From positions 1-32,531 of the forward strand of contig JACQXL010000073.1 in NCBI GenBank assembly GCA_016208805.1: a DNA stretch of 32,531 nt. Reading direction: 5' to 3'. The notes beneath the pieces were generated by a model. The model was not told the origin of the DNA and made no database searches. It saw only the letters and a list, made by a program, of their open reading frames with translations. Below, piece by piece: positions 908-32,531 of this stretch (within the stretch, counting starts at the first letter, position 1; each line of letters begins with the position of its first letter). The position numbers and the translations under genes were made by a program. This stretch comes from Planctomycetota bacterium (lineage in GTDB: Bacteria > Planctomycetota > MHYJ01 > JACQXL01).

Positions 908-976
908 AGATGAACACAGATAAACACAGATATTTCCGGATAATTTATCAGGGTTAATCCGTGTTTATCTGTGGTT
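902..976. repeat. CACAGAT-family inverted-repeat element with no cargo between the arms
   Basis: The left arm AACCACAGATGAACACAGATAAACACAGAT (from 902) faces the right arm GTGTTTATCTGTGGTT (961-976), whose reverse complement is AACCACAGATAAACAC. It abuts the start codon of the regulator gene. Confidence 0.7.
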
Positions 977-1328: not shown

Positions 1329-2261
1329 ATGAGTTACTTTAAGATTTTAGGATTGACGCAGGAGCCGTTTTCCACGAGTCCGGACCCGGTTTTCTTTTAC
1401 GAGGCCCGGGCGCACAAGACCGCACTGACCAACCTGATTATTGAACTGCGGCTCCGGAGGGGTTTGAACGTGATTTTAGGAGATGTCGGCACGGGCAAGA
1501 CGACCTTAAGCCGGAAACTGATTCAGGCGCTCTCGGTCCGGGAGGGATTCCTGTTCCATATCATCCTTGACCCGACCTTTGACCCAGCACCTACTTTGGC
1601 TGAAGGATCTACTTTAGCGTCTTGCCCTTATGCCAAAGTGGGTGCTGGGGAGTTTCTGTTCCTGTCATCTATGGTTCGGACATTCGGGATAGAGGTTGGG
1701 CCGAATGCCACTGTTTTAGACCTCAAGGAGGCGCTTAAGGCGTTCCTGTTTAAGACCGGCGTGGAAGAGCGCAAGACCCTGGTGTTGATTATAGATGAAG
1801 CCCAGAAATTGACCGAGCCGGCGCTGGAAGTCCTGCGCATCCTGTTGAACTATGAAACCAATGAGTACAAACTCCTGCAATTAGTGCTATTGGGGCAGTT
1901 GGAACTGTATTCCCGGATTATTACCATCCCGAACCTGACGGACCGGATAAGTTTCAAATACACCCTGAACCCGCTGGACGAGGACGAGACCCGGGAGATG
2001 ATAGATTTCCGTCTGCGCCAGGCGGGATATCAGGCCAGAAGCGGGTTGTTTACGGCCGGCGCGGTCAAGGAGATACACCATCACACCAAGGGCTATCCGC
2101 GCCAGGTGGCGCTTTTGTGCCACCAGGCGCTTAAACAGGCGATAATGAAAACCAGGTCAGTGGTAGATGACAAGATGGTCAAGGATGTTATCCATGAGGA
2201 GGTAAGAAACGGGTGGTCGGTGCAAACCCCGCCAAAGGCCGCATCGACTCAAATGAAATGA
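1329..2261 (+). CDS. ExeA/GspA/MshM-family AAA+ ATPase (secretin-assembly type)
   Basis: 310-aa ORF. N-terminus FKILGLTQEPFSTSPDPVFFYEARAHKTAL, Walker A GDVGTGKTT, Walker B LVLIIDEAQKL, then LQLVLLGQLEL and LNPLDEDETREMIDFRLRQAG. These are the hallmark blocks of the COG3267 ExeA family. The protein ends after the ATPase core, with no TM or peptidoglycan-binding extension. Confidence 0.85.
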   Translation: MSYFKILGLTQEPFSTSPDPVFFYEARAHKTALTNLIIELRLRRGLNVILGDVGTGKTTLSRKLIQALSVREGFLFHIILDPTFDPAPTLAEGSTLASCPYAKVGAGEFLFLSSMVRTFGIEVGPNATVLDLKEALKAFLFKTGVEERKTLVLIIDEAQKLTEPALEVLRILLNYETNEYKLLQLVLLGQLELYSRIITIPNLTDRISFKYTLNPLDEDETREMIDFRLRQAGYQARSGLFTAGAVKEIHHHTKGYPRQVALLCHQALKQAIMKTRSVVDDKMVKDVIHEEVRNGWSVQTPPKAASTQMK

Positions 2262-2400
2262 CGAATGTCTAATGACGAATGACGAAATAATGACTAAATG
2301 CTCAAATGCCGAAATTTAGGCATTAGGTCATTCGGTATTCTTTCGTCATTAGGGTTTAAACATTAGTCATTGTTTCGGATTTAGATATTCGGATTTCGTA
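2262..2400. repeat. Imperfect long palindrome built from AATGACG/CGTCATT-type heptamers
   Basis: AATGACGAATGACGAAA (2271-2287) faces TTTCGTCATT (2341-2350). AATGCC (2305-2310) faces GGCATT (2319-2324). AATGACTAAATG (2289-2300) faces CATTAGTCATT (2361-2371). The region lies between the ATPase gene and the next ORF. Confidence 0.6.
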
Positions 2401-2416
2401 TTTAAGGAGATAGTGG

Positions 2417-3208
2417 ATGGCAGGACCTGATACCACCAAAGACGGTCTGACCCCGGAAGAGCAGTTATTACGTATCATAGAGTCAGACAGTCCCGCTAAT
2501 AAGCAGTCCCGACACGGTGGTGTCGGGACTGCGGCTCAACAAAATCCGGCGGTATCAACTGATGCCACCTTAATTGAGGGGCTTCAGATAAAGGAGTCGC
2601 CCCGAACCGGACTGGTTAAGTCGCTGGGCGCGGTGTTAGGACGGTCGTTGGCCGGCCGTTCGGCGCTTAAGGTGGTCAACCGGTTGTTGATGGTGGCGCT
2701 ATTGGGGCTGGCCGGCTATCTGGCCTGGGACGTGTCCGGAACGGGCCAGGGTAATGCCGCACAAATCCCGAATACAGGCGGCGAGATAGTTGTGCCGGAT
2801 ATCCCGGCCCAGCCGCCCATTGACGAGGTGATTAAAGAGGTGGACCGACGTAATATCTTCCGGCCGGTTGAGGTCAAGATAATTGAAACCGCTACCGGAC
2901 CGACCACGCCGACCGCCACCGCGACCGGGCCGACCGTCGTTGAGGTAAAATCACCCCTTACCGAAATCATCAAAAACTTCCGGCTGATCGGAATTATGTG
3001 GTCGGCTGAAAAGCCGGTGGCCATTATTGAGGATAAGTCCTTGAATAACCAGACCCATTGCGTGGCCAAGGACGAGGAAATCTTCTCCCGGGACCAGGCC
3101 AACGCCACCCGGGAGGTGAAGATAATTATCAAGGAAATCGCCAAAGACAAGGTGATTCTCCAGTTTGAGGACGAGGAAAAGGAATTAAGGGGGGAGACAA
3201 AATGGTAA
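2417..3208 (+). CDS. Bitopic membrane protein with C-terminal GspC-HR/PilP/ExeB-like beta domain (putative secretin-interacting assembly factor)
   Basis: 263-aa ORF with an AAGGAG RBS (2404-2409) 7 nt upstream. It has a hydrophilic N-terminus, one TM (VVNRLLMVALLGLAGYLAW) and a Pro/Thr-rich linker (TGPTTPTATATGPT). The C-terminus FRLIGIMWSAEKPVAIIEDKSLNNQTHCVAKDEEIF...VKIIIKEIAKDKVILQFEDEEKEL resembles GspC-HR/PilP domains. Position and topology mirror ExeB next to ExeA. The stop overlaps the secretin start. Confidence 0.55.
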   Translation: MAGPDTTKDGLTPEEQLLRIIESDSPANKQSRHGGVGTAAQQNPAVSTDATLIEGLQIKESPRTGLVKSLGAVLGRSLAGRSALKVVNRLLMVALLGLAGYLAWDVSGTGQGNAAQIPNTGGEIVVPDIPAQPPIDEVIKEVDRRNIFRPVEVKIIETATGPTTPTATATGPTVVEVKSPLTEIIKNFRLIGIMWSAEKPVAIIEDKSLNNQTHCVAKDEEIFSRDQANATREVKIIIKEIAKDKVILQFEDEEKELRGETKW

Positions 3209-4923
3209 CCACAGATAAATCACACCATGTCGGTATGACGTGGCACAGATGGACACGGATAACACTGATATTGTTAGGGGTTCTCTGCGTGCTCGGCGTC
3301 TCTGCGGTGCGGACGGATTACCTGGCTGAAGAGAAGGTCGTGAAAGAGGCGGCGGCTCCGCCCGTAGTTAAGTTAGACCCGATTCAGGAAGGGTCGGTGG
3401 AGATCCCGCCACTTATGGCGGGGTTGAGCAAGACCTTTTCGCCCCAGGTCAAAGAGGCCAATATCCGCGATGTCCTCTGGTCGCTTAAGAAAATCGGCAA
3501 CCTTAATATCGTCACCACCAAAGAGGTGTCCGGCACGGTAACATTGTTTTTAGAGAATGTCACCATCGGCGATGCCCTGGAAATCATCCTGATTACCAAC
3601 GGTCTGGCCAGGGAAATCAAGGGCAATATCATCAATATTATGACCGAGACCCAGTACCAGGCGCTCTACGGCGACCCGTATAATAACAAACGGGTGATTC
3701 AGACCTTCAAACTCCAGTATGCCCGCCCGCGCAAGGTGTCCGCTTTCCTTGAGAAAATCAAGACCAGCGGCGGCTCTATCATTCCGGACGACGGCAGCGG
3801 CACCCTCATCGTCATAGACGTCCCGGATAAAATCAACCTCTTAGCCGAGTCCATCAAACGGCTGGATATGCCGACTGAGACCAGGACATTTGAGTTGAAA
3901 TACGCCGCGGTTGAAGATGTGGAGCCGTCCATCACCAAACTGTTGACGCCGGACTACGGCGAAATCAAGATTGATAAACGGATGAAAAAGTTGATTGTCA
4001 CGGATTCGCCCAGGAATATGGGTGTCATTGAGAATATGGTCAGGGAATTTGACTCCAAACCCAGGCAGGTGTTGATTGAGGCCAAGATGATACAGGTGAT
4101 TTTGTCCGAGGAGCATCTGATGGGCATAGACTGGCGCCAGGTATTCTCGGGGTTCTCGTCCCTGGAGAATGTCAAGTTTATGGGTTCGTTTCCGATGGGT
4201 ACCAAAGATAAGACCTGGCTGGTTCCGGATAAGATTATCAAGGGCGAGGAGACTATTGTTAAGGATGTCGTAAACCGCAACATCCTGCAGGCCCAATTCG
4301 GTACCATCGGCCAGACGCATTATCAGGCGGTTCTCCAGGCGCTCCAGGGCTACGGCACCAATAAGGTCATCTCCGCCCCGCGGCTGATTGCCTTCCAGGA
4401 AAAGGAATGTGTCTTTGAGGTAAAGACCCAGGAGGCATATACCCAGACGACCGTGACCACATCCCAGGCCACTTCCACCACATCCGAGCAGGTGATGTTC
4501 AAGGATGTGGGCGTATTCTTGAGGGTGACGCCGTCCATCAATCAGGATGGTTTTATCACAATGAAGGTGGCGCCTACGGTCAGCCAGGTGACCAAAATCT
4601 ATGAAACGCCGCAGGGCAATAAGATACCCATTGTAGAAGAGGCGACCACGACCACAACGGTCATTGTCAAAAACGGTGTCTGTATTGTCATCGGTGGGCT
4701 GATTAAAGACGACAAGTTCCAGCAAAAAATGGGCGTGCCGGTGCTTTCCAGCATCCCGCTCATCGGCGGGCTATTCGGTTCAACCCGCGATTATACCGCC
4801 AAGACCGAGACGGTGGTGTTTTTAACGCCGTCCATCGTCACCGGCGAGGCGGATTCATCAGTCATTACCAAGAAAGGCGATTTGGAAGAGAAGGAGTTGA
4901 AAGACCTGAAACCTATAAAATAA
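3202..4923 (+). CDS. Secretin (GspD/PilQ/MshL family) outer-membrane channel
   Basis: 573-aa ORF with an N-terminal signal-like segment (MTWHRWTRITLILLGVLCVLGVSAV). N0/N1-type ring domains are present (FKLQYARPRKVSAFLEKI..., FELKYAAVEDVEPSITKLL...). The C-terminal secretin core includes VLIEAKMIQV, NKVISAPRLIAFQEKE, GVFLRVTPSINQDGFITMKV, VIVKNGVCIVIGGLIKD and GVPVLSSIPLIGGLFG...TETVVFLTPSIV. An alternative start is the ATG at 3235. Confidence 0.92.
   Translation: MVTTDKSHHVGMTWHRWTRITLILLGVLCVLGVSAVRTDYLAEEKVVKEAAAPPVVKLDPIQEGSVEIPPLMAGLSKTFSPQVKEANIRDVLWSLKKIGNLNIVTTKEVSGTVTLFLENVTIGDALEIILITNGLAREIKGNIINIMTETQYQALYGDPYNNKRVIQTFKLQYARPRKVSAFLEKIKTSGGSIIPDDGSGTLIVIDVPDKINLLAESIKRLDMPTETRTFELKYAAVEDVEPSITKLLTPDYGEIKIDKRMKKLIVTDSPRNMGVIENMVREFDSKPRQVLIEAKMIQVILSEEHLMGIDWRQVFSGFSSLENVKFMGSFPMGTKDKTWLVPDKIIKGEETIVKDVVNRNILQAQFGTIGQTHYQAVLQALQGYGTNKVISAPRLIAFQEKECVFEVKTQEAYTQTTVTTSQATSTTSEQVMFKDVGVFLRVTPSINQDGFITMKVAPTVSQVTKIYETPQGNKIPIVEEATTTTTVIVKNGVCIVIGGLIKDDKFQQKMGVPVLSSIPLIGGLFGSTRDYTAKTETVVFLTPSIVTGEADSSVITKKGDLEEKELKDLKPIK
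3207..3262 (+). repeat. 56-nt CACAGAT-family repeat, copy A (inside the secretin 5' end)
   Basis: AACCACAGATAAATCACACCATGTCGGTATGACGTGGCACAGATGGACACGGATAA matches 4942-4997 with 3 mismatches. Confidence 0.85.
3393..3422 (+). repeat. 30-nt shared hairpin-containing segment, copy in the secretin N-terminal region
   Basis: GTCGGTGGAGATCCCGCCACTTATGGCGGG is identical to the reverse complement of 648-677 and encodes SVEIPPLMAG. Confidence 0.85.
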
Positions 4924-4941
4924 CAGCGTCTAACATAATGA

Positions 4942-4997
4942 AACCACAGATACATCACACCATGTCGGTATGACGTGGCACAGATGAACACCGATAA
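4942..4997 (+). repeat. 56-nt CACAGAT-family repeat, copy B (just 3' of the secretin stop)
   Basis: AACCACAGATACATCACACCATGTCGGTATGACGTGGCACAGATGAACACCGATAA. Its 3' end is one arm of a 10-bp hairpin, ACACCGATAA (4988-4997) with TTATCGGTGT (5009-5018). Confidence 0.85.
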
Positions 4998-5045
4998 ATT
5001 ATACTGGATTATCGGTGTGCATCATAAGACAGTGGAAAACAGGAT

Positions 5046-5414
5046 ATGGCCTTTGAACACAAAGAAATAATCCACGAAATACTCAATGCGTCGTTTGAGG
5101 TTCATAATACTTTAGGATGCGGATTTTTAGAAAAGGTTTACGGAAAAGCCCTCTTATATGAACTGAGGCGAAGAGGGTTAAAAGTAGAAGCACAAAAGGA
5201 GATAAAGGTTTATTACAAGAAAGTTGAGGTGGGTAATTATATCGCAGATATGATCGTTGATGGGAAGGTAATAATAGAATTGAAAACTGTTGAAGAAGTG
5301 GTTAAAATCCACGAAGCCCAATTATTAAACTACTTGAAGGCAAGCGGCTATAAAGTAGGACTTATTTTAAACTTCGCTAAGACGAAATTAGAATACAAAA
5401 GATTAGTGATGTAA
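5046..5414 (+). CDS. GxxExxY family protein (PD-(D/E)xK nuclease-like fold family)
   Basis: 122-aa ORF. The signature GCGFLEKVY matches the G-x-x-E-x-x-Y motif. Family-typical blocks are EVHNTLGCGFLEKVYGKALLYELRRRGL and ADMIVDGKVIIELKTVEEV..HEAQLLNYLKASGYKVGLILNF. Confidence 0.9.
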   Translation: MAFEHKEIIHEILNASFEVHNTLGCGFLEKVYGKALLYELRRRGLKVEAQKEIKVYYKKVEVGNYIADMIVDGKVIIELKTVEEVVKIHEAQLLNYLKASGYKVGLILNFAKTKLEYKRLVM

Positions 5415-5478
5415 AAGATGAACGCAGATAAAAATCCGTGTTTATCTGTGTGTATCTGTGGTTACAAGGAGGTTAGTT

Positions 5479-9678: not shown

Positions 9679-9758
9679 GCGACGTTATACGAAACCACAG
9701 ACCGCAGGCACAGATAGACACAGATACGATGAATTATGGGGGTAATGGGCATCCCCAG

Positions 9759-9905
9759 AGGTTTCGGGGACATCCCTACGAGTTAGGGGGAACTCCCCCC
9801 GAGTTAGGGGGAACTCCCCCCGAGTCAGGGGGAACTCCCCCCGAGTTAGGGGGAACTCCCCCCGAGTCAGGAGGGCTTCCCTATGAGTTATAGGGACTTC
9901 CTTCT
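9759..9905. repeat. 21-bp tandem repeat array (GAGTYAGGGGGAACTCCCCCC) with degenerate flanking units
   Basis: Core units at 9780-9800, 9801-9821, 9822-9842 and 9843-9863 are identical except for one T/C position. Degenerate units lie at 9759-9779, 9864-9884 and 9885-9905. Each unit has two mutually exclusive hairpin options, GGGGG-AACT-CCCCC or GAGTT-AGGGGG-AACTC. There are no spacers, so it is not a CRISPR array. Confidence 0.9.
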
Positions 9906-9967
9906 ATTTCCGGATAAATACGGATGTAATCCGTGAAATCCGTGGCTGGGACTCCAGAAAAATCCGT

Positions 9968-10003
9968 GTTACGAAAAGGTAACAAATGTTACGATATCGT
10001 AAC
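9968..10003. promoter_or_regulatory. Paired palindromic sites: GTTAC-N6-GTAAC and a perfect 16-bp palindrome GTTACGATATCGTAAC (candidate operator/UAS)
   Basis: GTTACGAAAAGGTAAC at 9968-9983 and GTTACGATATCGTAAC at 9988-10003. The centre lies about 140 bp upstream of the -24 element at 10138. Confidence 0.4.
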
Positions 10004-10136
10004 AGAACCACCTGTAAACGGATTAAACGGATTGAGCGGATAAGATTTATTTACCACCGGGAAAACCCTGTAAAATCTGCTAAATCCGTTAAATCCGCTT
10101 ACTAAAGCGAAAAAATCCGTGTAATCCGTGGCTGGC

Positions 10137-10152
10137 TGGCACGGGTTTTGCA
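10137..10152 (+). promoter_or_regulatory. Sigma-54 (RpoN) -24/-12 promoter element
   Basis: TGGCACG-GGTT-TTGCA matches the consensus TGGCACG-N4-TTGCW exactly (GG 10138-10139, GC 10150-10151, GG-N10-GC spacing). It sits 13 nt upstream of the giant-ORF ATG (10165). Confidence 0.6.
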
Positions 10153-10164
10153 TATATGTAGTTC

Positions 10165-28100: not shown

Positions 28101-31100
28101 GGTTGGCGTGGAATATCCGATTACCTGGACCACAGTAGGACCGATTGCCAATGTGGGCATTCAGGTATCCATAGACCCGGCGCATTCTACATGGGAAACA
28201 CTGGTTACTTCTACTGCTGCCGCGGCTGGTGTCTATACATGGACAGTATTAGACCGTATCTCGGCTACCGCACAAATCCGCGTCCTTGATGCCGCCGATG
28301 CAACCGTCAGGGATGATTCTAATAACGACTTCAGGATTAGGGGTCGGTTCAATGTCGTCTATCCTAATGGCGGTCAGATATTTGTAGTCGGCCAGACTAA
28401 TGTTCCGATTACCTGGACTTCCACCGGCACGATGGATACCGTCAAGATAGAGTATTCCAGGGATGACTTTAATAGCGATATTAATACCATTATTGCCTCA
28501 ACCGAGAATGATGGCAGTTACCCCTGGCCGGTTATTCCTGACGCGATTGTGTCAACCATGGCTGTAAAAATCAGGGTTTCTTCTACCACTGACTACGGCG
28601 CACGAGACGACTCCGACAGCGGATTCAAGATAAGGGGCGATTTAAACGTCCTTGTCCCAAATAACCCGGGTATTGTCTGGACTGTAGGTGAACAGAGAGT
28701 TATCCAGTGGAGCAAGACCGGCTCCATCAGCCAGGTGGAACTAAGATATTCCGATGATAATTTTGGGACTTATAACTCCATAAGTATTACTAATGCCGCG
28801 GCACTCTCTTATACCTGGACCGTGCCGGATGCGATAGGCGTAACCCCCAAGATGAAGATTCGGATTCTGGATGTTGCGGACAGCACGGTCTATGACGACT
28901 CTGATAACGCCTTTAAGATAAAAGGCAATATTACTATCGGTTCGCCTAAGATAAACGATATATTCACGGTCTATCACGCCAGTTATTACCCGACCACGCA
29001 TCCGATTACCTGGACACTAACCGGCACTATAAATAATGTCAAGATAGACTATTCTAAAGATAATTTTGCCACCAGTTGGCCGGTTGTTGCTTCTACTTCT
29101 GGTCCGGCCGGTCTATATAATTGGCCGGTGCCCGATGACATATCGTCAACCGTGCGTATCAGAATATACGATGCGGCTGATTCAACGGTCTATGTTGACT
29201 CGGATACTTTCTATATAAAGGGTAAGTTGTTTGTTACCGCGCCTCTGGCCGGTAATGCTTGGAAGGTCGGCTCTTCGCAGAATATCCAGTGGAACACCAC
29301 GGGTACTATTGCCAGCGTTAAACTTGATTACTTATCGCCGGCAGTGAACGATTGGATTAACATTACACCATCAACTACTAATACCGGTATCTTCGGCTGG
29401 TTGATACCGAATGATATTACCTATAGTAATAATGTTATTGTTCGCGTAATCAATCTATCAGACCCTAATGTTTATACCGATTCCGGTGGCTTTAAGATAA
29501 GAGGCGATTTTATAGTTGCCCAGCCCAACAGCGGTGCAGAAATATGGGAGGTCGCGACCAACCAGGTTATATCCTGGACCACCACCGGCACAATCAATAA
29601 CATAGACCTGCTCTATTCAACCGATAACTTCGGCCCGAATACCTGGACCATCTTCACCAATACGCTCAATAGCAGCCCTTACAACTGGGCTGTGCCTGAT
29701 AATGTTTCAAATAGCGTCCGGGTCAGGGTGCGCGATACCAATGACCCGAATCTGGTCTATGACGATTCCAATAACGACTTTTCTATTGTCGCCCGGATGC
29801 AGGTAACCAAGCCGTCAGCCGGTGAGAAATGGCAGGTGGGTGAAAAATACAGCGTAAAGTGGAAATGTTGGGGAACCGTGCCGAATGTCAAGATTGATTA
29901 TTCTGTTGCGCCGCCGTTCACGGTCTGGAAACCGGTCATCGCGTCATATGTTAACAACGCCAGCAATGACGGGCTGGTAGAAGGTTCATATGAATGGACT
30001 ATACCTGATGATATTTCAGAAACGGTTATTGTCCGTGTGGCGGATACCCGTTATCCATCACTGGTCTATGCCGATTCAGGACAATTCAAGATTAAGGGCG
30101 CTGTCAGAATCACCGCTCCGGTTCTTGATGATGTCTTCTATGTCTATCATCCGACCGCGAACCCGAATCCACATAATATTGTCTTCAGCGTAACCGGCAC
30201 AGGAGTTGGCGCGGTTAAGATACAATATTCCAAAGACAACTTCGCCACCACGCCGACCCTTATCGCAACTATGGCAACGGTTCAGGGTGTTAATACTTAT
30301 CAGTGGCAGGTGGACGATGCGATTGGCATAAATGTCAAAATCAGGGTAGAAAAGGAAACCGACTCCGAGACCATGGTTGATTCTGAATTCTTCATGATTA
30401 AGGGTAAATACACAGTAACCGCTCCGGGACCAGGCGCCTATATCGTCGGCTCTACCACTGCTATCCAGTGGATATCCTCCAGTACCATTTTTAATGTCAA
30501 GTTAGAATACTGGTCGCAGTCGGCCGGGAATTATGTGGTTATCCCCGGTGCCGGCAATATCCCGAACACCGGCTCATATTCCTGGCAGATACCCGACGAC
30601 ATCACCGCGGTTAACAATGTCAAGGTCAAGGTTTCTAATGCCGCTGACTCTTCAAGTTATGACGAAAGCGATGTTTCCTTTAAGATACGCGGCGATTTTG
30701 CCGTCCTGTTCCCTAATGCCGTCATAGACACCCTCCGGGTCGGCGAGGCCACGCCGGTCTCCTGGACCACCACCGGCAACATTCAGTATGTCAAGCTGGA
30801 ATATTCCACTGATGGTGGAACTACCTGGATTGACCCGCCCATAGAATCCAACCTCTTCCCTAACCCAAATACATATATTTGGACTGTGCCGGATGCCATT
30901 ACGACTACCGCCCGCTTCAGGGTGGCTGATGTGGCTGACCCAACCGTCTATGATATCTCTAACAATAACTTCAGGATTATGGGCAAGATTACGGTTAATC
31001 AACCTTCAGGTTCTGGTATTGTCTGGGTGGTCGGCACGAGCCAGAAGATTCGCTGGACCACCACCGCAACTATACCACGGGTTAAAATAGAATGGTCTGA

Positions 31101-31197
31101 AACCGACTTCTCCACGGTTTATTCCAGCACAGAGGTAGATTGTGGTCCGGCCGGCGTCTATGAGTATGACTGGACCATCCCCGGCCGGCGTCTATGA
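10165..31197 (+). CDS. Giant cell-surface protein (TM anchor, 3 LamG-like domains, beta-propeller-like insert, Ig-like repeat array); ORF interrupted at 31197 by a 34-nt tandem duplication and continuing to the window end
   Basis: 21-kb stop-free frame (7,010 codons) with recognisable domain grammar throughout. An in-frame TAG at 10159-10161 bounds the ORF upstream. No other in-frame ATG retains the TM anchor. Confidence 0.92.
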   Translation: MRNEPQIKLGGWRAVKFIGLAAGIVFIAFLLAYTASQNWHFVDPATDYVLDSTTDTISGLPNIELVTPSSIARLTLHPGRTYTAETKSGGDYNFDSGLYGSYLTATVPEKVVRLANSANGGYGNFDPAAGLASGSFLSRIFDSTVAGSNWTNIGWTDKRSETAEASAALTATISALYRFNTAPGIIADSGTYANTLANSGAALSGVQPNDANGEGLYNQSGYFNGASYLSRADAGSTNLNFGQDSFSMECWVKTSMTGKGPIINKRAAVITGTLGWEIGLNYDDTPANAGKPYLAIILQDYDVELSQAANFPQYLSAGRPVNDNQWHHIAAYRQIDQIAIYVDGIFQGKSGLDNPAANVNNAATMYIGWATETYEGTTTNYYYTGKLDELILYKGRVLTESEIFSRYERGLGVKFRVRASDTATSGWTDAVPAWSGEIINSSTTPSSVTTVSGRYFQYQAVLESRNRGATPMLTQVAVSGPASPADKTDDGSQSVEFDPEQIYTNPWGTSRRTMTVYRTDYISVKPRTDLTAARAGTEDGITALWRLEGNTTDLAGGDNPAILMNSPVYSTTVVALSPSNTNSIQLDGVNQYLTAAHSANIAFKYDHTLEAWIYPTVALDASGLPSQLAPAMTILDKGGYKVWWDNKSGKMLYELQDVTAKGVWQKDNLFKNATANFQSATPYFSELIQCMAVYRGKLYVGVSGNFVATTTTNGEARIYVYDGKTWELAYDPVPLGALLDYERVLCMTVAYDRLYCGLGITIDDGDLAIFDGTNWTMNYGLDAADYEGVYSLGTWKDGGTEYLYAGVGYSGNDADVYYINSAGTWTQVANNLGNDDAVTSLYVFKNKLYIGTGLDRDEAIVYRYDTPPTVATAPVTVYNPSATEALENVQCMTEYNGKIYVGFDGNAAGDADYAVSDSGDSGTWTLYKYNQIGGVGTFEGIYTMFTYDGKLYAGLGTSAGDCQLWYTTDGTGWTRDDDLYGIAGGYRTIKSQAEYMGRLYLGFGSALYNATTSIAITAGEPYDLFYLQSKGYIASTMNSFNVNTWYHIQAAYDRSVNRKMYLRISDTGGLIEENTVRANMILNASSVPLYIGADRQYGRYFRGLIDEVGLFNTAYIGAHQGPAYYESGEIAAPNNGYVRWNNIAWGEQERYGDELTAESGVEMAGLWHLNNNTIDEFGSTTDPANTLLDFTAGAKFGGYAGWFNGTNNKIAVWDGAAYNWTSAGLTVEAWVKNSTMLPQSIVAKGAGTTLEFRLYIENDYRPAFWVSSGGSGKSPLAYGPVARTVTDNRWHHIVGVYDGTSVKVFVDGESGGSVSYSGTVYNGADAVWIGSDQEGEWYYTGVIDEVAIYRRPLQSAEVLSRYQKGVTSLKLRVSVRDGGGYGSWVGPNDTDSDFKIGQSEVISGTTGLVGRAIKYRAEFTTANPLYPARFDLLKLAHQPYYSNQSPWVSNSSGWGYTGLAGFFETRGSGSATVDNVRYQISHPANPAEWWWYNAGWQIATSSVMSSTWQTINDNIYTFDPDGAPQSGNFYFKAFLVSNGIEYVALDEVKVADQSVTVTYPNGGEQWALGEQRQFQWSKKGAVTAVKIELARNGLGGSWEVITDTVDAAAGVYTWTVTSPVSTTCYARITSLQDASVWDTSNAQFEIKEVSGKSITIGSPSAGDNWIAEDPHSITWTTLGGVGNVTIQYSKSGNFDDTKTLVTGIPNTTTIYNWTPVSSDISSAAGGKIRIMEDDGSPTTDSNAFFVKAGFNITVPNTYPISWVVGTNQTIQWFTKGDSGDVKLEYSRDDFNSDINIITPAISNSPGAGSYVWTPIPITTTLGAAYNVKVRIKTLDATKPPAEDKSDNGFKICGSITVGQPNGGETLYVNDMGNVITWTKVGNIVNYQIRYSTNGGTSWPYNIVASTGGTDLGGGVRGFTWEPIPDTISPDCRVKITDADDGPFYEVLDTSNANFTIKGKLALTTHPGQASGQEFVIDSTTPISWNTVGTIPNVNVWYIDDFGSVKITGPISNTGGILWTITDDLNPDPNSNVRVWVENADDTTVKSQSLNAFKIKGEITVGKPVGGDTYLAYHSSYQTTTYSITWTVTGSIPFVRLEYSTTGEFGAYSTVAPPAPVIIACGATGTYNYTWQVPSVLSVACRVKVSDSADTAVYGLSQPTDFTVKGKLEVTAPISSDIWAVGDTDKIIKFKVTGNIGDARIEYLDNTSTWQPITTSFPATAGIENSYQWSSGVADVITTTARIRVRPVIAERADPSESPLFTIKTNINVYKPALNDSVYVYHPTYQPTKYPITYTYTGTVTNVKFQYSANGDAGPWTDIGTGFTNGDGTGQYNWEVPNVITSTAKVKVLDNDANHPAAEGKSQQFLIKGRLIVAYPSAGDAVTYQDNIAISWTAVGSFTPVKIEYYDGTSWVTPEITSSAASVSGTNNSYPWNIPDKDSDTCKIRVSSTDWQNISAEGGVFRIKGKVQVTTPAGGEVYVIGQNPVISGTKSTSVSAIKLEYYNDGSVSPGWETVVTSYAVAPLTTWSYSGWTVPDKISADPFSPAAKIRITDVTVAGYSDVTSTSNSFKVIGSFTITYPDAVATWGVGEPRPITWTTNGSISKVNIQWSINGVTWTNFVTNYDNNGNGTTAIGITVPDAITNTFRVRVAANTDSTVYKDSPNFVVKGRFLMTQPISTTKWLVNNQEDIKWDVWGTISKVNIYYWNQTIPDWVSITTNAPATNTVTTGQYLWTIPNLIRDDIKVKVENVDDTSVVRESDPFKIRGKVHIDVPNGGQVYYVYDTVDQPTKSPIQFTITGSITTALNLEYSIDDAVWNPIATTTVASAGVYTYQWEVPGTVPTNICKTVKVRIVDTAVEGEIDPSDANFEIRGKIFVTGPITTTVWAVGEIGNSIVWTSVGNIGSVTLQYLKDITWTNITTVASNDGTNNYLWSAGVANAISSAAKIRVVPDPAFDRASPAESPAFSIKSTITVGSPMANAVLLVDSTTPITWTYTGTVSKVNIEFNINEEVTWTAVATADTAGNGTGSYDWKVPNAISTNVNIRISDADAGHPAGTVEGPTFNIKGKLTVGAPISTSEWTTGESRAITWTANGGPFNIKLELSTDDGLSWEATPIVASYGSVSGTNTYTWNPVWDRVSSKCRIRISPTQTWQSISDVSPQFKIKGLLTVTAPSMAGQSGYLTIGQNPSITGTKSTAVTSIKIEYYNDSAIPGWETLIASHGVGVGTTWSYGLWTVPDKISADPLSPAAKIRVTDVTDAGITCSSESGTFKVCGSFTVTYPPALTVWLVGESRPITWTTNGSINNVNVQWSKDGGSNWTTFSNGTNVSNNGNGTTALTITVPDAIANTFKVRVVASGDSTVWASSPNIEVKGRLQITAPIATTIWRVGNQEYITWDVWGTISKVNIYYWNQTIPDWVSITTNAPATNTPTTGQYLWTIPNLIRDDFKVKVENVDDSSVVRESDPFKIRGKVQVNNPNGAEVYYVYDSVDQTTKYPITYTVTGAISQVKIEYLQSGITWTLISTTNATGLWMWEVPGAAADICKAVRVRVTDNINSDTADDSNADFEIRGKIFVTGPITTTVWAVGEIGNSIVWTSVGNIGSVTLQYLKAGSWYDITTVASNDGINSYLWVAPGVADAISTAAKVRVKPDETFDRANIAESPAFTIKTTITIGKPTAGESLFVDNTYTITWTYTGTVSQVKIEYNKNDEVTWTQVALVTASQKFYDWQVPDAISDNVNIRISDNDAGHPPATVESGQFYIKGQVTVGAPAFGAEWTYNESRNITWTANGGPFDVRIELSTNNGGSWEATPIVASYGSVSGTNTYPWNPVWDRVSAQCKVRVKSTGDLQNISDESEVFKIKGQLQIGYPAGGEVFVVNSSPTITGTKSTAVRYIKIECDYDDTAPGDWVTLAASYDVGAGTTWSYGGWTVLDRISANPLGPAARIRVTDVTDASITNVIATSNNFKVIGGFTVTYPTAGTTWLVGESRPITWTTNGAINAVNVQWSKDGGSNWTTFSNGANVPNNGNGTTALTITVPDAITNTFKVRVVAFSDDTVWAASPNIEVKGRLQITQPISTTKWLVDNQEEIKWDVYGSVSSVNIDYRTGLLQPWVSITTTAPATYTSGAGRYGWTIPNVIGDTLQVRVVQSNDSAVESISAQYLKIRGKVQINNPNNGTEVYYPYDAVYQTTKYPITYTVTGSVSQVRLEYCPDGVAGPWTQITLVDTPVSGTSTYLWEVPGALTDIKKTVRVQIVDTTADGESDYSDANFEIRGRVTVTSPDASATWAVGETGRTINWDGVGNIGNVTLEYLKGVSWYSIATVASSNGPNSYLWNAGTPPYVADAISTAAKIRIVPDPAFGRAITDDSDPFTIKSTLMLGKPTAGESLYVDNSYTITWTYTGTVTNVKLEYNINDEVTWTNIATVSAGAVGQGSYDWTVPNAISSNVNLRISDADAGHPAATVEGVQFFIKGQITIGSPALDAEWTKGESRAITWTANGGPFPVKIELSTNNGGSWEATPILGAYTSVSGTNSWTWNPVWDRVSSQCKIKISSTDGWQNISGLSNSFKIKGTVTVGYPAGGETFVVNNNPTITGTKSGAVTAFKIEVDYDDTAPGDWVTLAASYAVVSGSATWSYGGWTVLDRISANPLSPAARIRVTDVTDASITNIIAISNNFKVKGAISVSSPAFPDEWLVGSSQTITWSATGSVSPVNIYYSTDDFATITKTIATNVLAGSGTRIYTWPAVADNITSGYTVKVKVCASNDQDDVKGVSSIFKIKGAIEVREPSNPGIELEVGSAYTITWRTTGQPKNVRIVYYTDIIPETEIVASTPATYVPIAGVTYEGRYPNWVVPPAVSKQARIKIYDKDDNTVYDISDNVFRIKAKITVTSPNTGNEVGIVGADPGLSISWAITGTATNVKLEYTVNNGLTWTNIATVDAGATPYNWVIPDVTGIISNNCRVRVTDADAGETDILDISDNLFRIRGKLNLDTPNVAADFEVGDTVVFQWTATGPIAQVNILYSTDDFATVTKTLFSGLASGSGTKTQNWTIPNDFADLTTSRIIRFKVVDSSDSAVYDNSDAMFKIKGKFQVIDPNSSNLTWLVGELRTITWTTTGKIASVNVQYSKDGTTNWTTFSNGSGVPDNAAGSGLGTTALIVTVPDAISPTFRVRVVNQVDTAVADPCDYDIRIRGRLQIYDPIATTKWLVSNQEFIRWNVYGSIPTVNIEYQDALVPGWIPITTSAPATNTPTTGQYLWAIPNFIKDSVQVRVVQSDDAAVFSESAQFKIRGKVRIDTPNGGETYYPYDAVYQTTKYPITYTVTGSVSQVRLEYCPDGVAGPWTVIALINPPSAGTYTYMWEVPGALNDIKETVRVQIVDTMANGESDYSDNPFKIKGIMQVSEPPDADGVWEVGQSGTILWSVVGAVGDVTLQYLQPADGFWYDIASVSTTSGANSYVWGSVADAITSTARVRVKPVISTKADIAVSNPFKIKGRVLVTAPTLGYVAKVGESCPISWVISGTMNTVTLQYKVGIDAWQDITTVPAGLLGGTYNGWTTPDRISTNVRVRVFDTSVPEAFDDSDQFEIRGKLHLDYPSDSGLPDWVIFGTYPITWTAYGTINQVELRYDLNNGNGPDGNPDTGDEYLNVITTTASGALTHDYYWTVPDIASANTRIRVVDVTNSAVKDESDYPFRIAGTITVEYPGTGNVFTVGDPIVITGTKSSGVTQADIQYWNGNLSQYVSVAISASIGTGLTWSYNWIAPDCLMGDLRIKAIFSEDTTIFDIGDQFRVKGNLTLGRPNGNEVFTVGTTEPITWTMMGSIINVNLYYSLDNFVSSSRTIATDLSAVAGSYNWPVPDDITAGYSVKIRITDSAYEIGTYDDSNNPFKIRGKTEVQPITWTVTGSIQKVRLTYTYGEPDGRTTEIEITPDTAGTTTGNTGVYLWTVPNLITSKARIKVYDKNDNNTWDESDNTFKTRGNITVGSPNGNEAWLVGVEYPITWTTVGPIANVGIQVSIDPAHSTWETLVTSTAAAAGVYTWTVLDRISATAQIRVLDAADATVRDDSNNDFRIRGRFNVVYPNGGQIFVVGQTNVPITWTSTGTMDTVKIEYSRDDFNSDINTIIASTENDGSYPWPVIPDAIVSTMAVKIRVSSTTDYGARDDSDSGFKIRGDLNVLVPNNPGIVWTVGEQRVIQWSKTGSISQVELRYSDDNFGTYNSISITNAAALSYTWTVPDAIGVTPKMKIRILDVADSTVYDDSDNAFKIKGNITIGSPKINDIFTVYHASYYPTTHPITWTLTGTINNVKIDYSKDNFATSWPVVASTSGPAGLYNWPVPDDISSTVRIRIYDAADSTVYVDSDTFYIKGKLFVTAPLAGNAWKVGSSQNIQWNTTGTIASVKLDYLSPAVNDWINITPSTTNTGIFGWLIPNDITYSNNVIVRVINLSDPNVYTDSGGFKIRGDFIVAQPNSGAEIWEVATNQVISWTTTGTINNIDLLYSTDNFGPNTWTIFTNTLNSSPYNWAVPDNVSNSVRVRVRDTNDPNLVYDDSNNDFSIVARMQVTKPSAGEKWQVGEKYSVKWKCWGTVPNVKIDYSVAPPFTVWKPVIASYVNNASNDGLVEGSYEWTIPDDISETVIVRVADTRYPSLVYADSGQFKIKGAVRITAPVLDDVFYVYHPTANPNPHNIVFSVTGTGVGAVKIQYSKDNFATTPTLIATMATVQGVNTYQWQVDDAIGINVKIRVEKETDSETMVDSEFFMIKGKYTVTAPGPGAYIVGSTTAIQWISSSTIFNVKLEYWSQSAGNYVVIPGAGNIPNTGSYSWQIPDDITAVNNVKVKVSNAADSSSYDESDVSFKIRGDFAVLFPNAVIDTLRVGEATPVSWTTTGNIQYVKLEYSTDGGTTWIDPPIESNLFPNPNTYIWTVPDAITTTARFRVADVADPTVYDISNNNFRIMGKITVNQPSGSGIVWVVGTSQKIRWTTTATIPRVKIEWSETDFSTVYSSTEVDCGPAGVYEYDWTIPGRRL
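10204..10269 (+). other. N-terminal transmembrane anchor or uncleaved signal of the giant protein
   Basis: AVKFIGLAAGIVFIAFLLAYTA is preceded by basic residues (KLGGWR). No prepilin-type G/FTLIE motif and no lipobox are present. Confidence 0.7.
10801..11400 (+). other. LamG/ConA-like jelly-roll domain 1 (LamG_3-like)
   Basis: FSMECWVKTS...WEIGL...NQWHHIAAYRQIDQIAIYVDGIFQG...MYIGW...YYYTGKLDELILYKGRVLTESEIFSRYERG. A further beta-rich segment follows, ending RYFQYQAVLES..ATPMLTQVAVS. Confidence 0.75.
11782..13500 (+). other. LamG-like domain 2, split by a ~330-aa insertion
   Basis: The N-half is LWRLEGNTTDLAGG...HTLEAWIYPTV...ILDKGGYKVWWDNKSGKMLYELQD (to about 12135). The C-half is NTWYHIQAAYDRSVNRKMYLRISD...LYIGADRQYGRYFRGLIDEVGLFN (13221-13500). 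Confidence 0.6.
12220..13190 (+). other. Beta-propeller-like repeat region (6-7 blades) inserted in LamG domain 2
   Basis: A blade motif recurs every ~45-50 aa: VYRGKLYVGVSG, AYDRLYCGLG, TEYLYAGVGY, FKNKLYIGTG, YNGKIYVGFDG, YDGKLYAGLG, YMGRLYLGFG. Each is followed by ..Y.YDG..W-type strands. The DNA is visibly more AT-rich than the flanking LamG halves. Confidence 0.5.
13651..14259 (+). other. LamG/ConA-like jelly-roll domain 3
   Basis: LWHLNNNTIDEFG...LTVEAWVKNS...NRWHHIVGVYDGTSVKVFVDGESGG...VWIGSDQEGEWYYTGVIDEVAIYRRPLQSAEVLSRYQKG. A beta segment follows, ending GRAIKYRAEFTTANPLYPARFDLLKLA. Confidence 0.75.
16333..22641 (+). repeat. Three complete tandem copies of a 7-domain super-repeat (2121, 2106 and 2082 nt)
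   Basis: The unit order a-g recurs with starts at 16333, 18454, 20560 and 22642. a = YVYD..QTTKYPITYTVTG. b = VWAVGE..I.W.SVGNIG.VTLQYL. c = ITWTYTGTV. d = ITWTANGGPF...SWEATPI. e = NP.ITGTKS.AV. f = RPITWTTNGSI. g = I.WDVWGTISKVNIYY. Confidence 0.85.
22642..26610 (+). repeat. Fourth super-repeat copy interrupted by a 4-domain insertion, plus a partial fifth copy
   Basis: Domains a-e lie at 22642-24177. Unrelated domains lie at 24178-25398. Domains f-g lie at 25399-26001. Domains a-b occur again at 26002-26610. Confidence 0.75.
24178..25398 (+). other. 1,221-nt (4-domain) block inserted between domains e and f of super-repeat copy 4
   Basis: The domains start AISVSSPAFPDEW, AIEVREPSNPGIE, KITVTSPNTGNEV and KLNLDTPNVAADF. 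The first and fourth share YSTDDFAT[IV]TKT. The length is an exact multiple of 3. Confidence 0.7.
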
Positions 31198-31214
31198 GTA
31201 TGACTGGACCATCC
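31147..31214 (+). repeat. Exact 34-nt tandem duplication that breaks the giant ORF (+1 shift)
   Basis: CCGGCCGGCGTCTATGAGTATGACTGGACCATCC occurs at 31147-31180 and again at 31181-31214. The downstream domain continues perfectly in the +1 frame. Confidence 0.95.
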
Positions 31215-31663
31215 CGATGGCAATGCTCAGACCCCATTCCAACTGGAAGGTCAGGATTTCGGATATCAGATATCCGTATCCGGCGGTATATGATGATTCT
31301 AATAACGGCTTCAAACTCCGGGGTGATTTCGCCTGGCTCAATCCAGTCGGTAACGAAATATGGGCTGTCGGCGACCCCAGAACCATCTCCTGGACCACCA
31401 CCGGTCCAATCAATAACGTCAAGCTCCAATATACCAGAGACAACTGGGGTAGCGTTCGTAACATCCTGACCAATGCAGATACCAATGATACGATGGCAAA
31501 TGACGGATATTATAACTGGTCTGTGCCTGACTTCATCACCACGGATATCAGGGTAACGTTAAAGATTACCGATGCCAATGACCCGACGGTCTATAAACTT
31601 ACTCCGATAATCTCACCAAACACCGGGACACTCAAGATTCGCGGTACACGGATATCAGGGTAA
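31181..31663 (+). CDS. Continuation of the giant protein (frame 2 segment between the two duplications)
   Basis: PAGVYEYDWTIPMAMLRPHSNWKVRISD...DFAWLNPVGNEIWAVGDPRTISWTTTGPINNVKLQY... keeps the same Ig-like grammar. It ends at a TAA created by the 107-nt duplication. Confidence 0.8.
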   Translation, partial: PAGVYEYDWTIPMAMLRPHSNWKVRISDIRYPYPAVYDDSNNGFKLRGDFAWLNPVGNEIWAVGDPRTISWTTTGPINNVKLQYTRDNWGSVRNILTNADTNDTMANDGYYNWSVPDFITTDIRVTLKITDANDPTVYKLTPIISPNTGTLKIRGTRISG

Positions 31664-31754
31664 CGTTAAAGATTACCGATGCCAATGACCCGACGGTCTA
31701 TAAACTTACTCCGATAATCTCACCAAACACCGGGACACTCAAGATTCGCGGTAC
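31541..31754 (+). repeat. Exact 107-nt tandem duplication causing a second frame break (+2 shift)
   Basis: 31541-31647 is identical to 31648-31754 (ACGGATATCAGGGTAACG...AAGATTCGCGGTAC). Together with the 34-nt duplication it returns translation to the original frame. Confidence 0.95.
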
Positions 31755-32531
31755 GCTCTCAGTTAGTGAGCCGGCGGCCGGACGCATCTGGCTGTATAAC
31801 ACCAGCCAGAATATCCTCTGGAATTCATTAGGTTCTATCAGTGCTGTCAAGCTGGACTATTCTAAAGATAATGGAACAACCTGGGTTACCCCGCCTATTG
31901 AAGCAGCCCGGGCAAATAATAATGGTCCTAATTCCTATTCCTGGCTTGTGCCTGATACGATTGTGCCTGATTTCAGATGTCTGATTCGTCTTACCGATGT
32001 GAGTGATTCTACTATATCCGCCACCTCTGGTGCATTCAAGATTCGTGGAGATATCTCCGCGGTCTTCCCAACTACCCCTGACCTTACTCTCTATGTGGGT
32101 GAATCCAGGACCATTACCTGGACAACATCAGGCACGATTCCTTTCGTTAAGATAGAGTATTCTATGAATGACGGGTCAAGCTGGGTTACGCCTCCTATCG
32201 CCGAGTCAACCAGTAATACTAATTCCTATCCCTGGACCGTGCCGGATGCGATTACTAATACGGTCAAGATTCGTGTGGCTGATGCAGCCGACCTTTCGGT
32301 CAATGGTGTCTCTATGAGTTTTAAGATTATGGGCAGGGTGCTGGTCAACCAGCCGTCGGATATCGGTCTTGCCTGGGTTGTCGGCACGACCCAGAAGATT
32401 CGCTGGACCACCACCGCAACTATACCACGGGTTAAAATAGAATGGTCTGAAACCGACTTCTCCACGGTTTATTCCAGCACAGAGGTAGATTGTGGTCCGG
32501 CCGGCGTCTATGAGTATGACTGGACCATCCC
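31648..32531 (+). CDS. Continuation of the giant protein (frame 1), open at the window end
   Basis: Hand translation gives TDIRVTLKITDANDPTVYKL...KIRGTLSVSEPAAGRIWLYNTSQNILW...KIRGDISAVFPTTPDLTLYVGESRTITW...KIMGRVLVNQPSDIGLAWVVGTTQKIRWTTTATIPRVKIEWSETDF...YEYDWTIP with no stop. Confidence 0.8.
32391..32531 (+). repeat. 141-nt exact copy of 31041-31181, terminating the window
   Basis: Base-for-base identity at an offset of 1350 nt. The identity starts after a single G/C mismatch at 31040/32390 and runs to the last base of the window. Confidence 0.95.

Follow-up and report, generated by a model that had tools for sequence, protein, structure and literature searches.

The question raised by the locus described here is how a protein of some 7,000 residues (aa), bearing a Sec-type signal and a long array of immunoglobulin (Ig)-like repeats, might reach the surface of a planctomycete, and whether the secretin gene upstream of it takes part in the process. 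The locus lies in a stretch of 32,531 nucleotides (nt) from a Planctomycetota bacterium (positions 1 to 32,531 of contig JACQXL010000073.1, assembly GCA_016208805.1), hereafter called the window. Four of its genes, encoding an ATPase, a bitopic connector, the secretin and a coiled-coil/TPR protein, correspond by sequence to the MshM, MshK(PilP), MshL and MshN(TadD)-type outer half of a type IV filament machine resembling the type II secretion system (T2SS) and the mannose-sensitive haemagglutinin (MSHA) pilus. It seems somewhat probable that this secretin cassette handles the adjacent giant as its cargo, with motor and pseudopilin genes encoded elsewhere. The gene row was taken from the listing of open reading frames (ORFs) and their translations, families were assigned with Pfam and NCBIfam, and 154 relative loci were fetched for comparison (given L-numbers below where they must be told apart). 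The principal features are the following.

1329-2261, plus strand: MshM/ExeA-like soluble P-loop ATPase, AAA_22 (Pfam, NCBIfam)
2417-3208, plus strand: bitopic connector, 263 aa, candidate PilP/GspC-HR-like protein (ortholog alignment and profile search of the PDB)
3202-4923, plus strand: secretin with N0/STN, two N domains and the secretin domain (Pfam, NCBIfam, PDB matches)
5458-9678, plus strand: coiled-coil/TPR protein, 1,406 aa, with its TPR head at nt 9394-9627
10165-31197, plus strand: giant ORF as assembled, 7,010 aa, with signal/anchor, W-x-F...Y..D motif, at least three LamG domains and Ig-like repeats
14827-32531, plus strand: array of 59 tandem repeats of ~100 aa, Ig/FN3-like, running past the window end

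A first-pass annotation of this DNA had described five plus-strand genes in a row, interrupted by a small GxxExxY gene, in a window without pilin, GspE/PilB ATPase or platform genes. The ORF listing and translations bear out the coordinates and order of the row, the small gene matches PDDEXK_3/GxxExxY (5046-5414), and no homolog of GspE, GspF, pseudopilins, PilMN or PilO was found in any window ORF. Equally, the window contains no MshE, MshG or MshA pilin, and no genes of a type I secretion system (T1SS).

The secretin cassette and its relatives

The third gene of the row is indeed a secretin, as first proposed, for its product carries STN/N0, two Secretin_N and one Secretin domain (3.4e-41), with neither AMIN domains nor a long S-domain, and finds its best PDB matches in XcpQ (1e-33) and Vibrio PilQ (7e-29). 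Its NCBIfam scores all lie below the equivalog cutoffs (PilQ, 231 bits; GspD or TIGR02517, 211 vs a cutoff of 351; MshL or TIGR02519, 165 vs 250), and the GspD score would place the protein within the secretin superfamily, short of establishing GspD orthology; several homologous secretins are named MshL by the Joint Genome Institute. The nearest relatives belong to metagenome-assembled genomes of Planctomycetota and Candidatus Brocadiia (46-58% identity, with one of 93% on a 3.8-kb contig), followed by Omnitrophota at ~40%, and an exact-protein look-up intended to extend the contig gave no match for the window secretin. A nearly identical sequence of ~45 bp is present at the annotated 5' end of the gene (3205-3250) and again just past its stop (4940-4990), and translation may actually begin further downstream, with the Met at codon 12 (MTWHRW...).

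The ATPase (1329-2261, 310 aa) shows AAA_22-type matches only (Pfam 1.8e-16), with Walker A GDVGTGKT and Walker B IIDEAQ, and it is 50-67% identical to the ATPase preceding the secretin in all related cassettes. The likeness to ExeA initially claimed for it holds for the P-loop domain and ends there, for it possesses neither a transmembrane (TM) segment nor the periplasmic peptidoglycan-binding domain of ExeA. No PDB relative was found by sequence, and the best NCBIfam match, TIGR03015 (178 bits), is under cutoff. We considered a PEP-CTERM/XrtA system and rejected it, since TIGR03015 stays below its cutoff and neither the window nor a complete homolog of the giant (5,838 aa, see below) contains an exosortase or PEP-CTERM family. 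A prophage or inovirus origin was likewise rejected: PHROGs and Pfam identify a MuB-like AAA_22 protein and no Zot, the match between the secretin and the pIV family is a generic one, and there are no other phage genes.

The 263-aa connector, the stop of which overlaps the secretin start by 7 nt, has no Pfam match. An alignment of eight orthologs revealed a conserved cytoplasmic N-terminal motif, LTPEEQLLRIIE (LTPEEQLLRLIE), followed by one TM helix (~residues 86-106) and a periplasmic C-terminal beta domain; the top two PDB matches of the corresponding profile are PilP of the Myxococcus type IV pilus (T4P) machine (3jc8, E 0.002) and the HR domain of GspC (3oss_C, E 0.28). This constitutes weak but coherent evidence for a PilP/GspC-HR-like protein. 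The original description as ExeB/GspC-HR-like is retained as to bitopic topology and, tentatively, as to GspC-HR, which is among the top matches, whereas the protein seems, on these weak E-values, closer to PilP/GspC-HR than to ExeB.

The coiled-coil/TPR protein (5458-9678) begins with a hydrophobic anchor and continues as a rod of ~1,270 aa, with a single proline between residues 36 and 1341 and a heptad (3.5-residue) hydrophobic periodicity of 3.16 compared with 1.07 +/- 0.17 in shuffled sequences. A single-sequence AlphaFold2 (AF2) model of the last 400 residues shows three long helices and then short TPR helices, in agreement with the only specific Pfam domain, a C-terminal TPR (residues 1313-1390) with generic TPR matches alone in the PDB; the initial description of the protein is therefore accurate. 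From sequence comparison, it is an expanded homolog of the TPR proteins of 250-450 aa following the secretin in Omnitrophota cassettes; these bear a signal, combine a short coiled coil with a TPR at the C-terminal end, and are 26-44% identical to the C-terminus of the window protein. Since several of these short homologs carry cleavable signal peptides, the family can be placed in the periplasm. Its members in planctomycete cassettes measure 1,224-1,804 aa, with a coiled coil ~10 times longer than in Omnitrophota (1,100-1,650 vs ~100 residues). An Omnitrophota-like contig of 599 kb (L018:844-9511) has a second secretin followed by a coil/TPR protein of 2,296 aa, upstream of a normal block of connector, secretin and TPR (345 aa) genes and a DUF2341 protein of >1,696 aa, which indicates that the long versions are not exclusive to planctomycetes. 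A lipoprotein pilotin of the PilF type was considered for the window protein and discarded, given the absence of a lipobox, the first Cys at residue 361 and the length of 1,406 aa.

The relatives of the cassette were collected from the genomic contexts of secretin homologs and from a connector-profile scan of one genome per species (62 loci), and were annotated by BLAST with a small query set plus spot checks with Pfam. In ~40 related loci, as in the window, the secretin gene is directly followed by a TPR gene. Within ~25 Omnitrophota loci, the genes for ATPase, connector, secretin and TPR protein form the 3' end of an operon running gspE(MshEN+T2SSE)-gspF-gspG-N_methyl minor pseudopilins-gspK-pilMN-pilO; the complete genome of Ca. 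Velamenicoccus archaeovorus (NZ_CP019384.1, L023) carries the full operon ending in the block. These canonical operons continue with a histidine kinase and a LuxR-type regulator, and then with an 800-1,100-aa DUF2341/Ig-like protein having the same repeat type as the giant. The equivalence of the four genes with MshM, MshK(PilP), MshL and MshN(TadD) is drawn at the domain level only for MshM and MshN (AAA_22, 1.8e-16; TPR gene downstream).

The same block stands alone in planctomycetes, where ten species-level loci were recovered (the window, L001, L002, L004, L005, L006, L009, L014, L026 and L157). No T2SS or T4P core genes precede it within the 4.5-8.4 kb covered for six of these loci and the <2 kb covered for the other four; the upstream genes encode ParA, ParB, DJ-1, GDT1, radical-SAM proteins, a sigma factor and similar products. 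A divergent gene for an S24 regulator, present in the window (176-907) and passed over in the first-pass annotation, is conserved alongside the cassette in every planctomycete locus with upstream sequence (L001, L002, L004, L005, L006, L009, L016, L026 and L038). In agreement with what had first been supposed, no adjacent T2SS or T4P operon explains the secretin in the window or in the planctomycete flanks covered, whereas the homologous block does end a complete operon in the ~25 Omnitrophota loci. In a neighbour-joining tree of secretins, built without support values, the planctomycete cassettes form one clade and the loci linked to giants fall in two separate clades. Three Omnitrophota loci (L017, L019 and L058) have two tandem secretin genes before the TPR gene, followed in L019 by a Kelch-repeat protein of >1,444 aa.

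The giant protein and its linkage to the cassette

The giant ORF starts at 10165 with a hydrophobic signal/anchor, the only hydrophobic segment of the protein, and has LamG domains at ~residues 238-399, 1030-1114 and 1205-1358, LamG and Kre9_KNH/Reelin-B-like being the only Pfam families found. From residue 1555 (nt 14827) it consists of 59 tandem repeats of ~100 aa, some of which contain an Asp-box-like S-x-D-x-G-x-x-W. The Ig character attributed to them at first sight is substantiated by an AF2 model of the repeat (built on an alignment of 54 window repeats), which is a nine-strand beta sandwich with a mean per-residue confidence (pLDDT) of 92.4 and has its best PDB matches by Foldseek among Ig V-type and FN3-like modules (TM-scores of 0.55-0.68). 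Most repeats are 60-88% identical at the DNA level. Part of the array (18139-24200) is organized as a ~2.1-kb super-repeat of seven Ig-like domains in 3-4 copies with 60-98% DNA identity, suggesting recent internal expansion.

A giant follows the cassette in five of the ten planctomycete loci, namely the window, L001, L004, L005 and L026, after gaps of 0.5-1.2 kb. The ortholog in L005 is 70% identical over 1,800 aa, colinear with the first 1,800 aa of the window protein, while those of L004 and L001 are 52% and 32% identical and that of L026 represents a deep branch; each of the four reaches its contig end. The arrangement recurs in a group of Omnitrophota, here designated clade X (L021, L029/L154, L041, L060 or Ca. 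Taenariivivens baikalensis, L065 and L155), with secretins ~36-39% identical to that of the window and the gene order AAA_22-connector-secretin-TPR-giant. The giant gene directly follows the TPR gene in all six loci, at distances of -39 to +64 nt. The clade-X giant contains four LamG domains and the same Ig-like repeat and aligns with residues 6061-7381 of the window giant at 30-32% identity over ~1,300 aa (E 1e-149 to 1e-170); both groups of giants share an N-terminal signal followed by the motif W-x-F...Y-x-x-D...I...G-x-A-x-L. No gspE, gspF or gspG was found upstream of the clade-X cassettes, within ~6-9 kb for five of the six loci and 3 kb for L065. Other genes precede some of them: a TPR protein and a reprolysin-like metallopeptidase, then a second, divergent AAA_22 ATPase and an HD_5 phosphohydrolase (L021:4652-9058 and L154:3921-8348), or the AAA_22 and HD genes only, preceded by sugar-modifying genes (L155:2474-5400). 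The cassette may have further conserved partners in these genes.

A reverse look-up from the database giant closest to the clade-X homolog found the cassette upstream again, and one from a distant LamG protein found none. A metagenome scan for the reverse synteny, in which one search pattern proved to be a generic LamG motif, yielded just two true orthologs, L074, which lies on the contig of L005, and L075, which has no upstream sequence. The N-terminus of the window giant retrieved no homolog from the database, and that of the L154 giant no protein above ~2,100 aa even for a query taken exactly from a 5,838-aa gene, so that the database is apparently short of very long proteins.

We argue for a functional coupling of cassette and giant because the two have stayed adjacent in different phyla, with operon-tight spacing in one. 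The genetic linkage proposed in the first place is conserved in four other planctomycete assemblies and in all clade-X loci, though in only half of the planctomycete loci. Several observations weigh against a secretin cassette serving its neighbour as cargo. Unrelated genes and no giant lie downstream of the cassette in L002, L006, L009, L014 and L157. The spacer before the giant, 486 bp in the window and 0.85-1.2 kb in the closest relatives, indicates that the giant is transcribed separately. Upstream housekeeping synteny (parA-parB-DJ-1-GDT1) is common to the four closest planctomycete loci, so that part of the adjacency may be plain inheritance. The secretin tree has the limits stated above, the E-values of the PilP and GspC matches (0.002 and 0.28) are weak, and the C-terminus of the window giant lies beyond the window end. 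Finally, we know of no T2SS substrate of the giant's size.

The strongest alternative takes the two elements as neighbours without functional coupling, the cassette serving a T2SS or type IV pilus encoded elsewhere and the giant being exported otherwise, with adjacency either inherited or reflecting a loose clustering of envelope genes. The missing giants, the spacers and the shared synteny just mentioned speak for it, as does the fact that large LamG proteins are common and mostly not located beside secretins. We nevertheless regard it as rather unlikely, since the pairing recurs in clade X despite the divergence of the secretins and with tight spacing in every locus, since L026 retains the giant on a deep planctomycete branch (secretin 39% identical), and since gene order, by an established principle, rarely survives such divergence without selection.

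Export through the secretin, alternatives and neighbouring features

If the cassette does export the giant, the first unit (ATPase, connector, secretin and coiled-coil/TPR protein), presumably controlled from the spacer common with the divergent HTH/S24 regulator, would provide the outer-membrane and periplasmic sub-assembly of a T2SS/MSHA-kind machine of the type IV filament family. The secretin would be its outer-membrane gate, tied by the bitopic connector through the N0 ring to the inner membrane, and the soluble P-loop ATPase probably works on the conserved cytoplasmic tail of the connector, assembling or positioning the secretin by analogy with ExeA-ExeB. The exported TPR protein may act as an assembly factor or tether, its planctomycete coil possibly spanning a wide periplasm. 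The second unit would deliver the giant itself, exported by Sec via its N-terminal signal/anchor and folding to a thin rod of at least 59 Ig-like domains, roughly 0.2-0.3 um long, whose lectin-like LamG modules lie towards the N-terminal end; the giant is likely to reach the cell surface as the cargo of this secretin. The motor, platform and pseudopilin genes would presumably lie elsewhere in the genome.

A two-step route from Sec to the secretin fits the N-terminal Sec-type signal of the giant and the lack of other sorting signals. With regard to the latter, the complete sequence of one clade-X giant (5,838 aa) is available, and the families on record for it (LamG, Kre9_KNH and faint noise-like matches) include no RTX (HemolysinCabind), autotransporter, type IX secretion system (T9SS; Por_Secre_tail) or PEP-CTERM signal. 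A T1SS or T9SS signal, named at the outset as an observation that would speak against a secretin route, is thus not on record for the complete homolog, while the 3' end of the window gene itself is absent.

As for the coiled-coil/TPR protein, it had been seen as a tether or scaffold for the giant, a role that we discard because the length of the coil follows the phylum and not the presence of a giant. None of the planctomycete cassettes lacks the long coil, not even the five without adjacent giant, and clade X, which is always linked to a giant, has a TPR protein of only 340-380 aa with a cleavable signal peptide. Fully extended, a coiled coil of ~1,270 residues could be ~190 nm long, or shorter with a fold-back, and its expansion may have adapted a membrane-anchored TPR assembly factor to the wide periplasm of planctomycetes.

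Alternatively, the cassette might be a stand-alone secretin machine without pseudopilus, in which ATPase, connector, secretin and TPR protein alone extrude or anchor the giant in the manner of the pI/pXI-pIV pair of filamentous phages; this corresponds to the dedicated apparatus first imagined for the locus. It would agree with the lack of gspE, gspF, gspG and pilMNO in ~8-9 kb upstream of giant-linked cassettes (1.3-3 kb being covered for the window, L026 and L065), with the observation that cassettes attached to core operons have only the DUF2341/Ig proteins of 800-1,100 aa downstream, and with the strongly conserved cytoplasmic motif of the connector, encoded beside the ATPase gene. Yet ATPases of the MshM/ExeA type are accessory factors in known systems and not export motors (PMC6668835), no Zot/pI-like family was detected with Pfam or PHROGs, and the five cassettes without adjacent giant are equally devoid of core genes. 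Moreover, an absence within a 10-kb flank is silent on the rest of the genome, and MSH-type systems are multi-locus (PMC6668835). We therefore deem this explanation improbable. The same low likelihood attaches to its most elaborate form, in which a secretin, gated by the MshM-like ATPase (via the connector) together with a coiled-coil/TPR strut crossing the periplasm, would thread and hold the Sec-exported 0.2-0.3-um Ig fibre with no pseudopilus.

It is highly improbable that the giant ORF, or its place beside the cassette, is a chimera or mis-assembly of repeats, for although two perfect frameshifting tandem duplications occur and the contig ends inside a repeat, the cassette-giant order is found in four independent planctomycete and six Omnitrophota assemblies, most repeats have diverged enough at the DNA level to be assembled, the first 1,800 aa are colinear with L005, and the anomalies are confined to the last ~1.4 kb. 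These duplications are listed here with the remaining features of the window.

176-907, minus strand: HTH_3 and Peptidase_S24 (LexA/CI-like) regulator (Pfam), divergent from the cassette
908-1328, no strand: putative divergent promoter spacer with CACAGATR and AATCCGT repeats (motif counts)
5046-5414, plus strand: GxxExxY / PD-(D/E)XK (PDDEXK_3) gene (Pfam, NCBIfam)
9679-10164, no strand: spacer of 486 bp with a 21-bp tandem repeat and nine AATCCGT
31147-31215, no strand: perfect 34-bp tandem duplication, two copies (Tandem Repeats Finder), with frame shift and a stop at 31195
31540-31754, no strand: perfect 107-bp tandem duplication, two copies (Tandem Repeats Finder)

The giant as assembled stops at 31195-31197. 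Each duplication shifts the frame and both together add 141 nt, after which the original frame resumes; with one copy of each removed, an uninterrupted frame of 7,408 aa is obtained, still open at the window end. The length of more than 7,400 aa first reported is consequently correct for the sequence with both duplications collapsed, whereas the sequence as assembled encodes 7,010 aa. The last 212 nt of the window (32320-32531) repeat positions 30970-31181. The duplications are probably assembly joins or unmerged overlaps in the repeat, in which case the last ~1.4 kb of the window is likely to be unreliable.

Short repeats occur in essentially every spacer of the window (905-973, 3210-3251, 4945-4986, 5433-5460, 9709-9726 and 9928-10129). 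CACAGATR is present 14 times vs 1.75 expected in the window, and AATCCGT nine times upstream of the giant (9928-10129), four times in the spacer between the S24 and ATPase genes and once upstream of the coil gene; no enrichment of either motif was seen in the loci of relatives. They could represent a shared operator, for instance of the S24 regulator, or an organism-specific element resembling repetitive extragenic palindromes. A 21-bp tandem repeat (4.4 copies, 9779-9871), each unit of which holds the palindrome GGGGGAACTCCCCC, precedes the giant; none of the 154 fetched loci contains it. A promoter dedicated to the giant gene is probably located in this 486-bp spacer. Rfam, promoter and terminator scans yielded no match above chance level.

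By comparison with relatives, the GxxExxY gene is an insertion specific to this genome and outside the system. No relative has a GxxExxY/PDDEXK_3 gene between secretin and coil genes, where the gap measures ~12-370 nt and L009 has an 87-aa ORF without Pfam match. In L001, L005 and L023, the neighbourhood of the cassette contains small 23S_rRNA_IVP genes, which, together with the window insert, suggest that cassette loci attract small selfish genes.

Were the export of the giant through this secretin confirmed, a secretin route for a Sec-exported fibre of 6,000-7,400 aa would constitute a new cargo class for the T2SS/type IV filament family and would explain how the many giant proteins of the Planctomycetes-Verrucomicrobia-Chlamydiae (PVC) group reach the surface. 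The locus offers a compact case, with four accessory genes and one cargo gene conserved in two phyla. The difference in coil length between ultra-small Omnitrophota and planctomycetes moreover amounts to a natural experiment on trans-envelope machines and periplasm width, which bears on the debated cell plan of planctomycetes. If the adjacency were incidental, the finding would shrink to an ordinary split T2SS/MSHA-like system; a stand-alone machine would instead be a previously unrecognised display route for giant adhesins, common to a Brocadiia-related planctomycete lineage and an Omnitrophota clade.

Comparison with known systems

We found no description in the literature of a core-less cassette of these four genes, of such a cassette in Planctomycetota with a conserved S24 regulator, of a roughly ten-fold expansion of the coil in a TPR protein, or of a family of LamG and Ig-repeat giants common to planctomycetes and one Omnitrophota clade; the literature on planctomycete crateriform structures gave no link to secretins. 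The initial statement that no described system has this combination of genes goes too far all the same, since the cassette ends a full operon in the ~25 Omnitrophota loci and giants beside T2SS-like loci have been published (10.1101/2023.11.21.568195; 10.64898/2026.06.07.730766).

Giant Ig-repeat adhesins are known to use the T1SS or the type V secretion system. The window giant resembles T1SS adhesins of the LapA/SiiE type in being a predicted surface fibre of tens of tandem Ig-like domains with lectin-like modules, but those adhesins have no N-terminal Sec signal and possess C-terminal RTX/T1SS signals and adjacent ABC/MFP/TolC genes, whereas the window protein has an N-terminal signal/anchor. 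Like the ExeA/ExeB (GspA/GspB) pair of Aeromonas, the window encodes, beside secretion genes, an AAA_22 ATPase and a bitopic protein that would contact the secretin by its periplasmic domain. ExeA, however, resides in the inner membrane and carries a peptidoglycan-binding domain on the periplasmic side, whereas the window ATPase consists of the ATPase domain alone, and its bitopic partner seems, on weak evidence, nearer to PilP/GspC-HR than to ExeB. The pilotins PilF/PilW/Tgl and TadD are also TPR proteins encoded with a secretin, and in known systems they are needed for secretin assembly; they are outer-membrane lipoproteins of ~250 aa, unlike the window protein with its N-terminal anchor, very long coiled coil and no lipobox. 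The pI/pIV pair of filamentous phages differs in that the window ATPase is a MuB-like AAA_22 protein and not Zot, and there is no phage context. With the T2SS (Gsp), the window shares a secretin with N0, N and secretin domains, while GspE, GspF and GspG-K are absent from the locus.

The closest described arrangement of components is that of the MSH class, in which the MSHA block comprises MshK-MshL-MshM-MshN, with MshN as a TadD homolog, and from which the component set used here was taken (Denise et al. 2019, PMC6668835); the MacSyFinder model of this class is multi-locus and has MshE, MshG and MshA as mandatory components (PMC6668835). As in the MSHA system of Vibrio, the genes for a short secretin devoid of AMIN domains, a soluble AAA_22 ATPase of ~300 aa and a TPR protein are neighbours, together with one for a protein tentatively classed here as PilP-like, and the GspE of the operons of Omnitrophota relatives carries an MshEN domain. 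The order of the genes is different (M-K-L-N in the window vs K-L-M-N), the locus has no mshE, mshG or pilin genes, its TPR protein contains the ~1,270-aa coiled coil, and the related Omnitrophota operons use T2SS-type pseudopilins (T2SSG/J/K) and not MSHA pilins. The last four genes of the Omnitrophota operon in L023 are homologous to and colinear with window positions 1329-9678 (ATPase, 50-58% identity; secretin, 35-40%; TPR C-terminus, 26-44%). What distinguishes the clade of the window is a locus without the inner-membrane, motor and pseudopilin part, a divergent S24 regulator in place of MerR or none, and a TPR protein ~5 times longer overall.

A T2SS-like locus of >10 genes, with gspD, gspE and gspF among them, generally lies ahead of the giant genes of Omnitrophota (West-Roberts et al. 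2023, 10.1101/2023.11.21.568195, section 11), and secretion or pilus genes were reported to flank 13 of 14 giants (2026 preprint, 10.64898/2026.06.07.730766). These published cases have in common with the window a very large, repeat-rich and signal-bearing protein encoded directly after secretin-containing genes in bacteria of the PVC group, and their authors, too, read it as a secreted or displayed adhesion fibre. The Omnitrophota giants measure 30,000-147,000 aa and combine numerous TM segments with SecA-DEAD-like domains, and their loci count >10 subunits including gspE/F and a Tad-like rcpC; the protein of the window, by comparison, has ~7,400 aa, one N-terminal hydrophobic segment and LamG and Ig-like modules, with four secretion-related genes adjacent to it in a planctomycete host.

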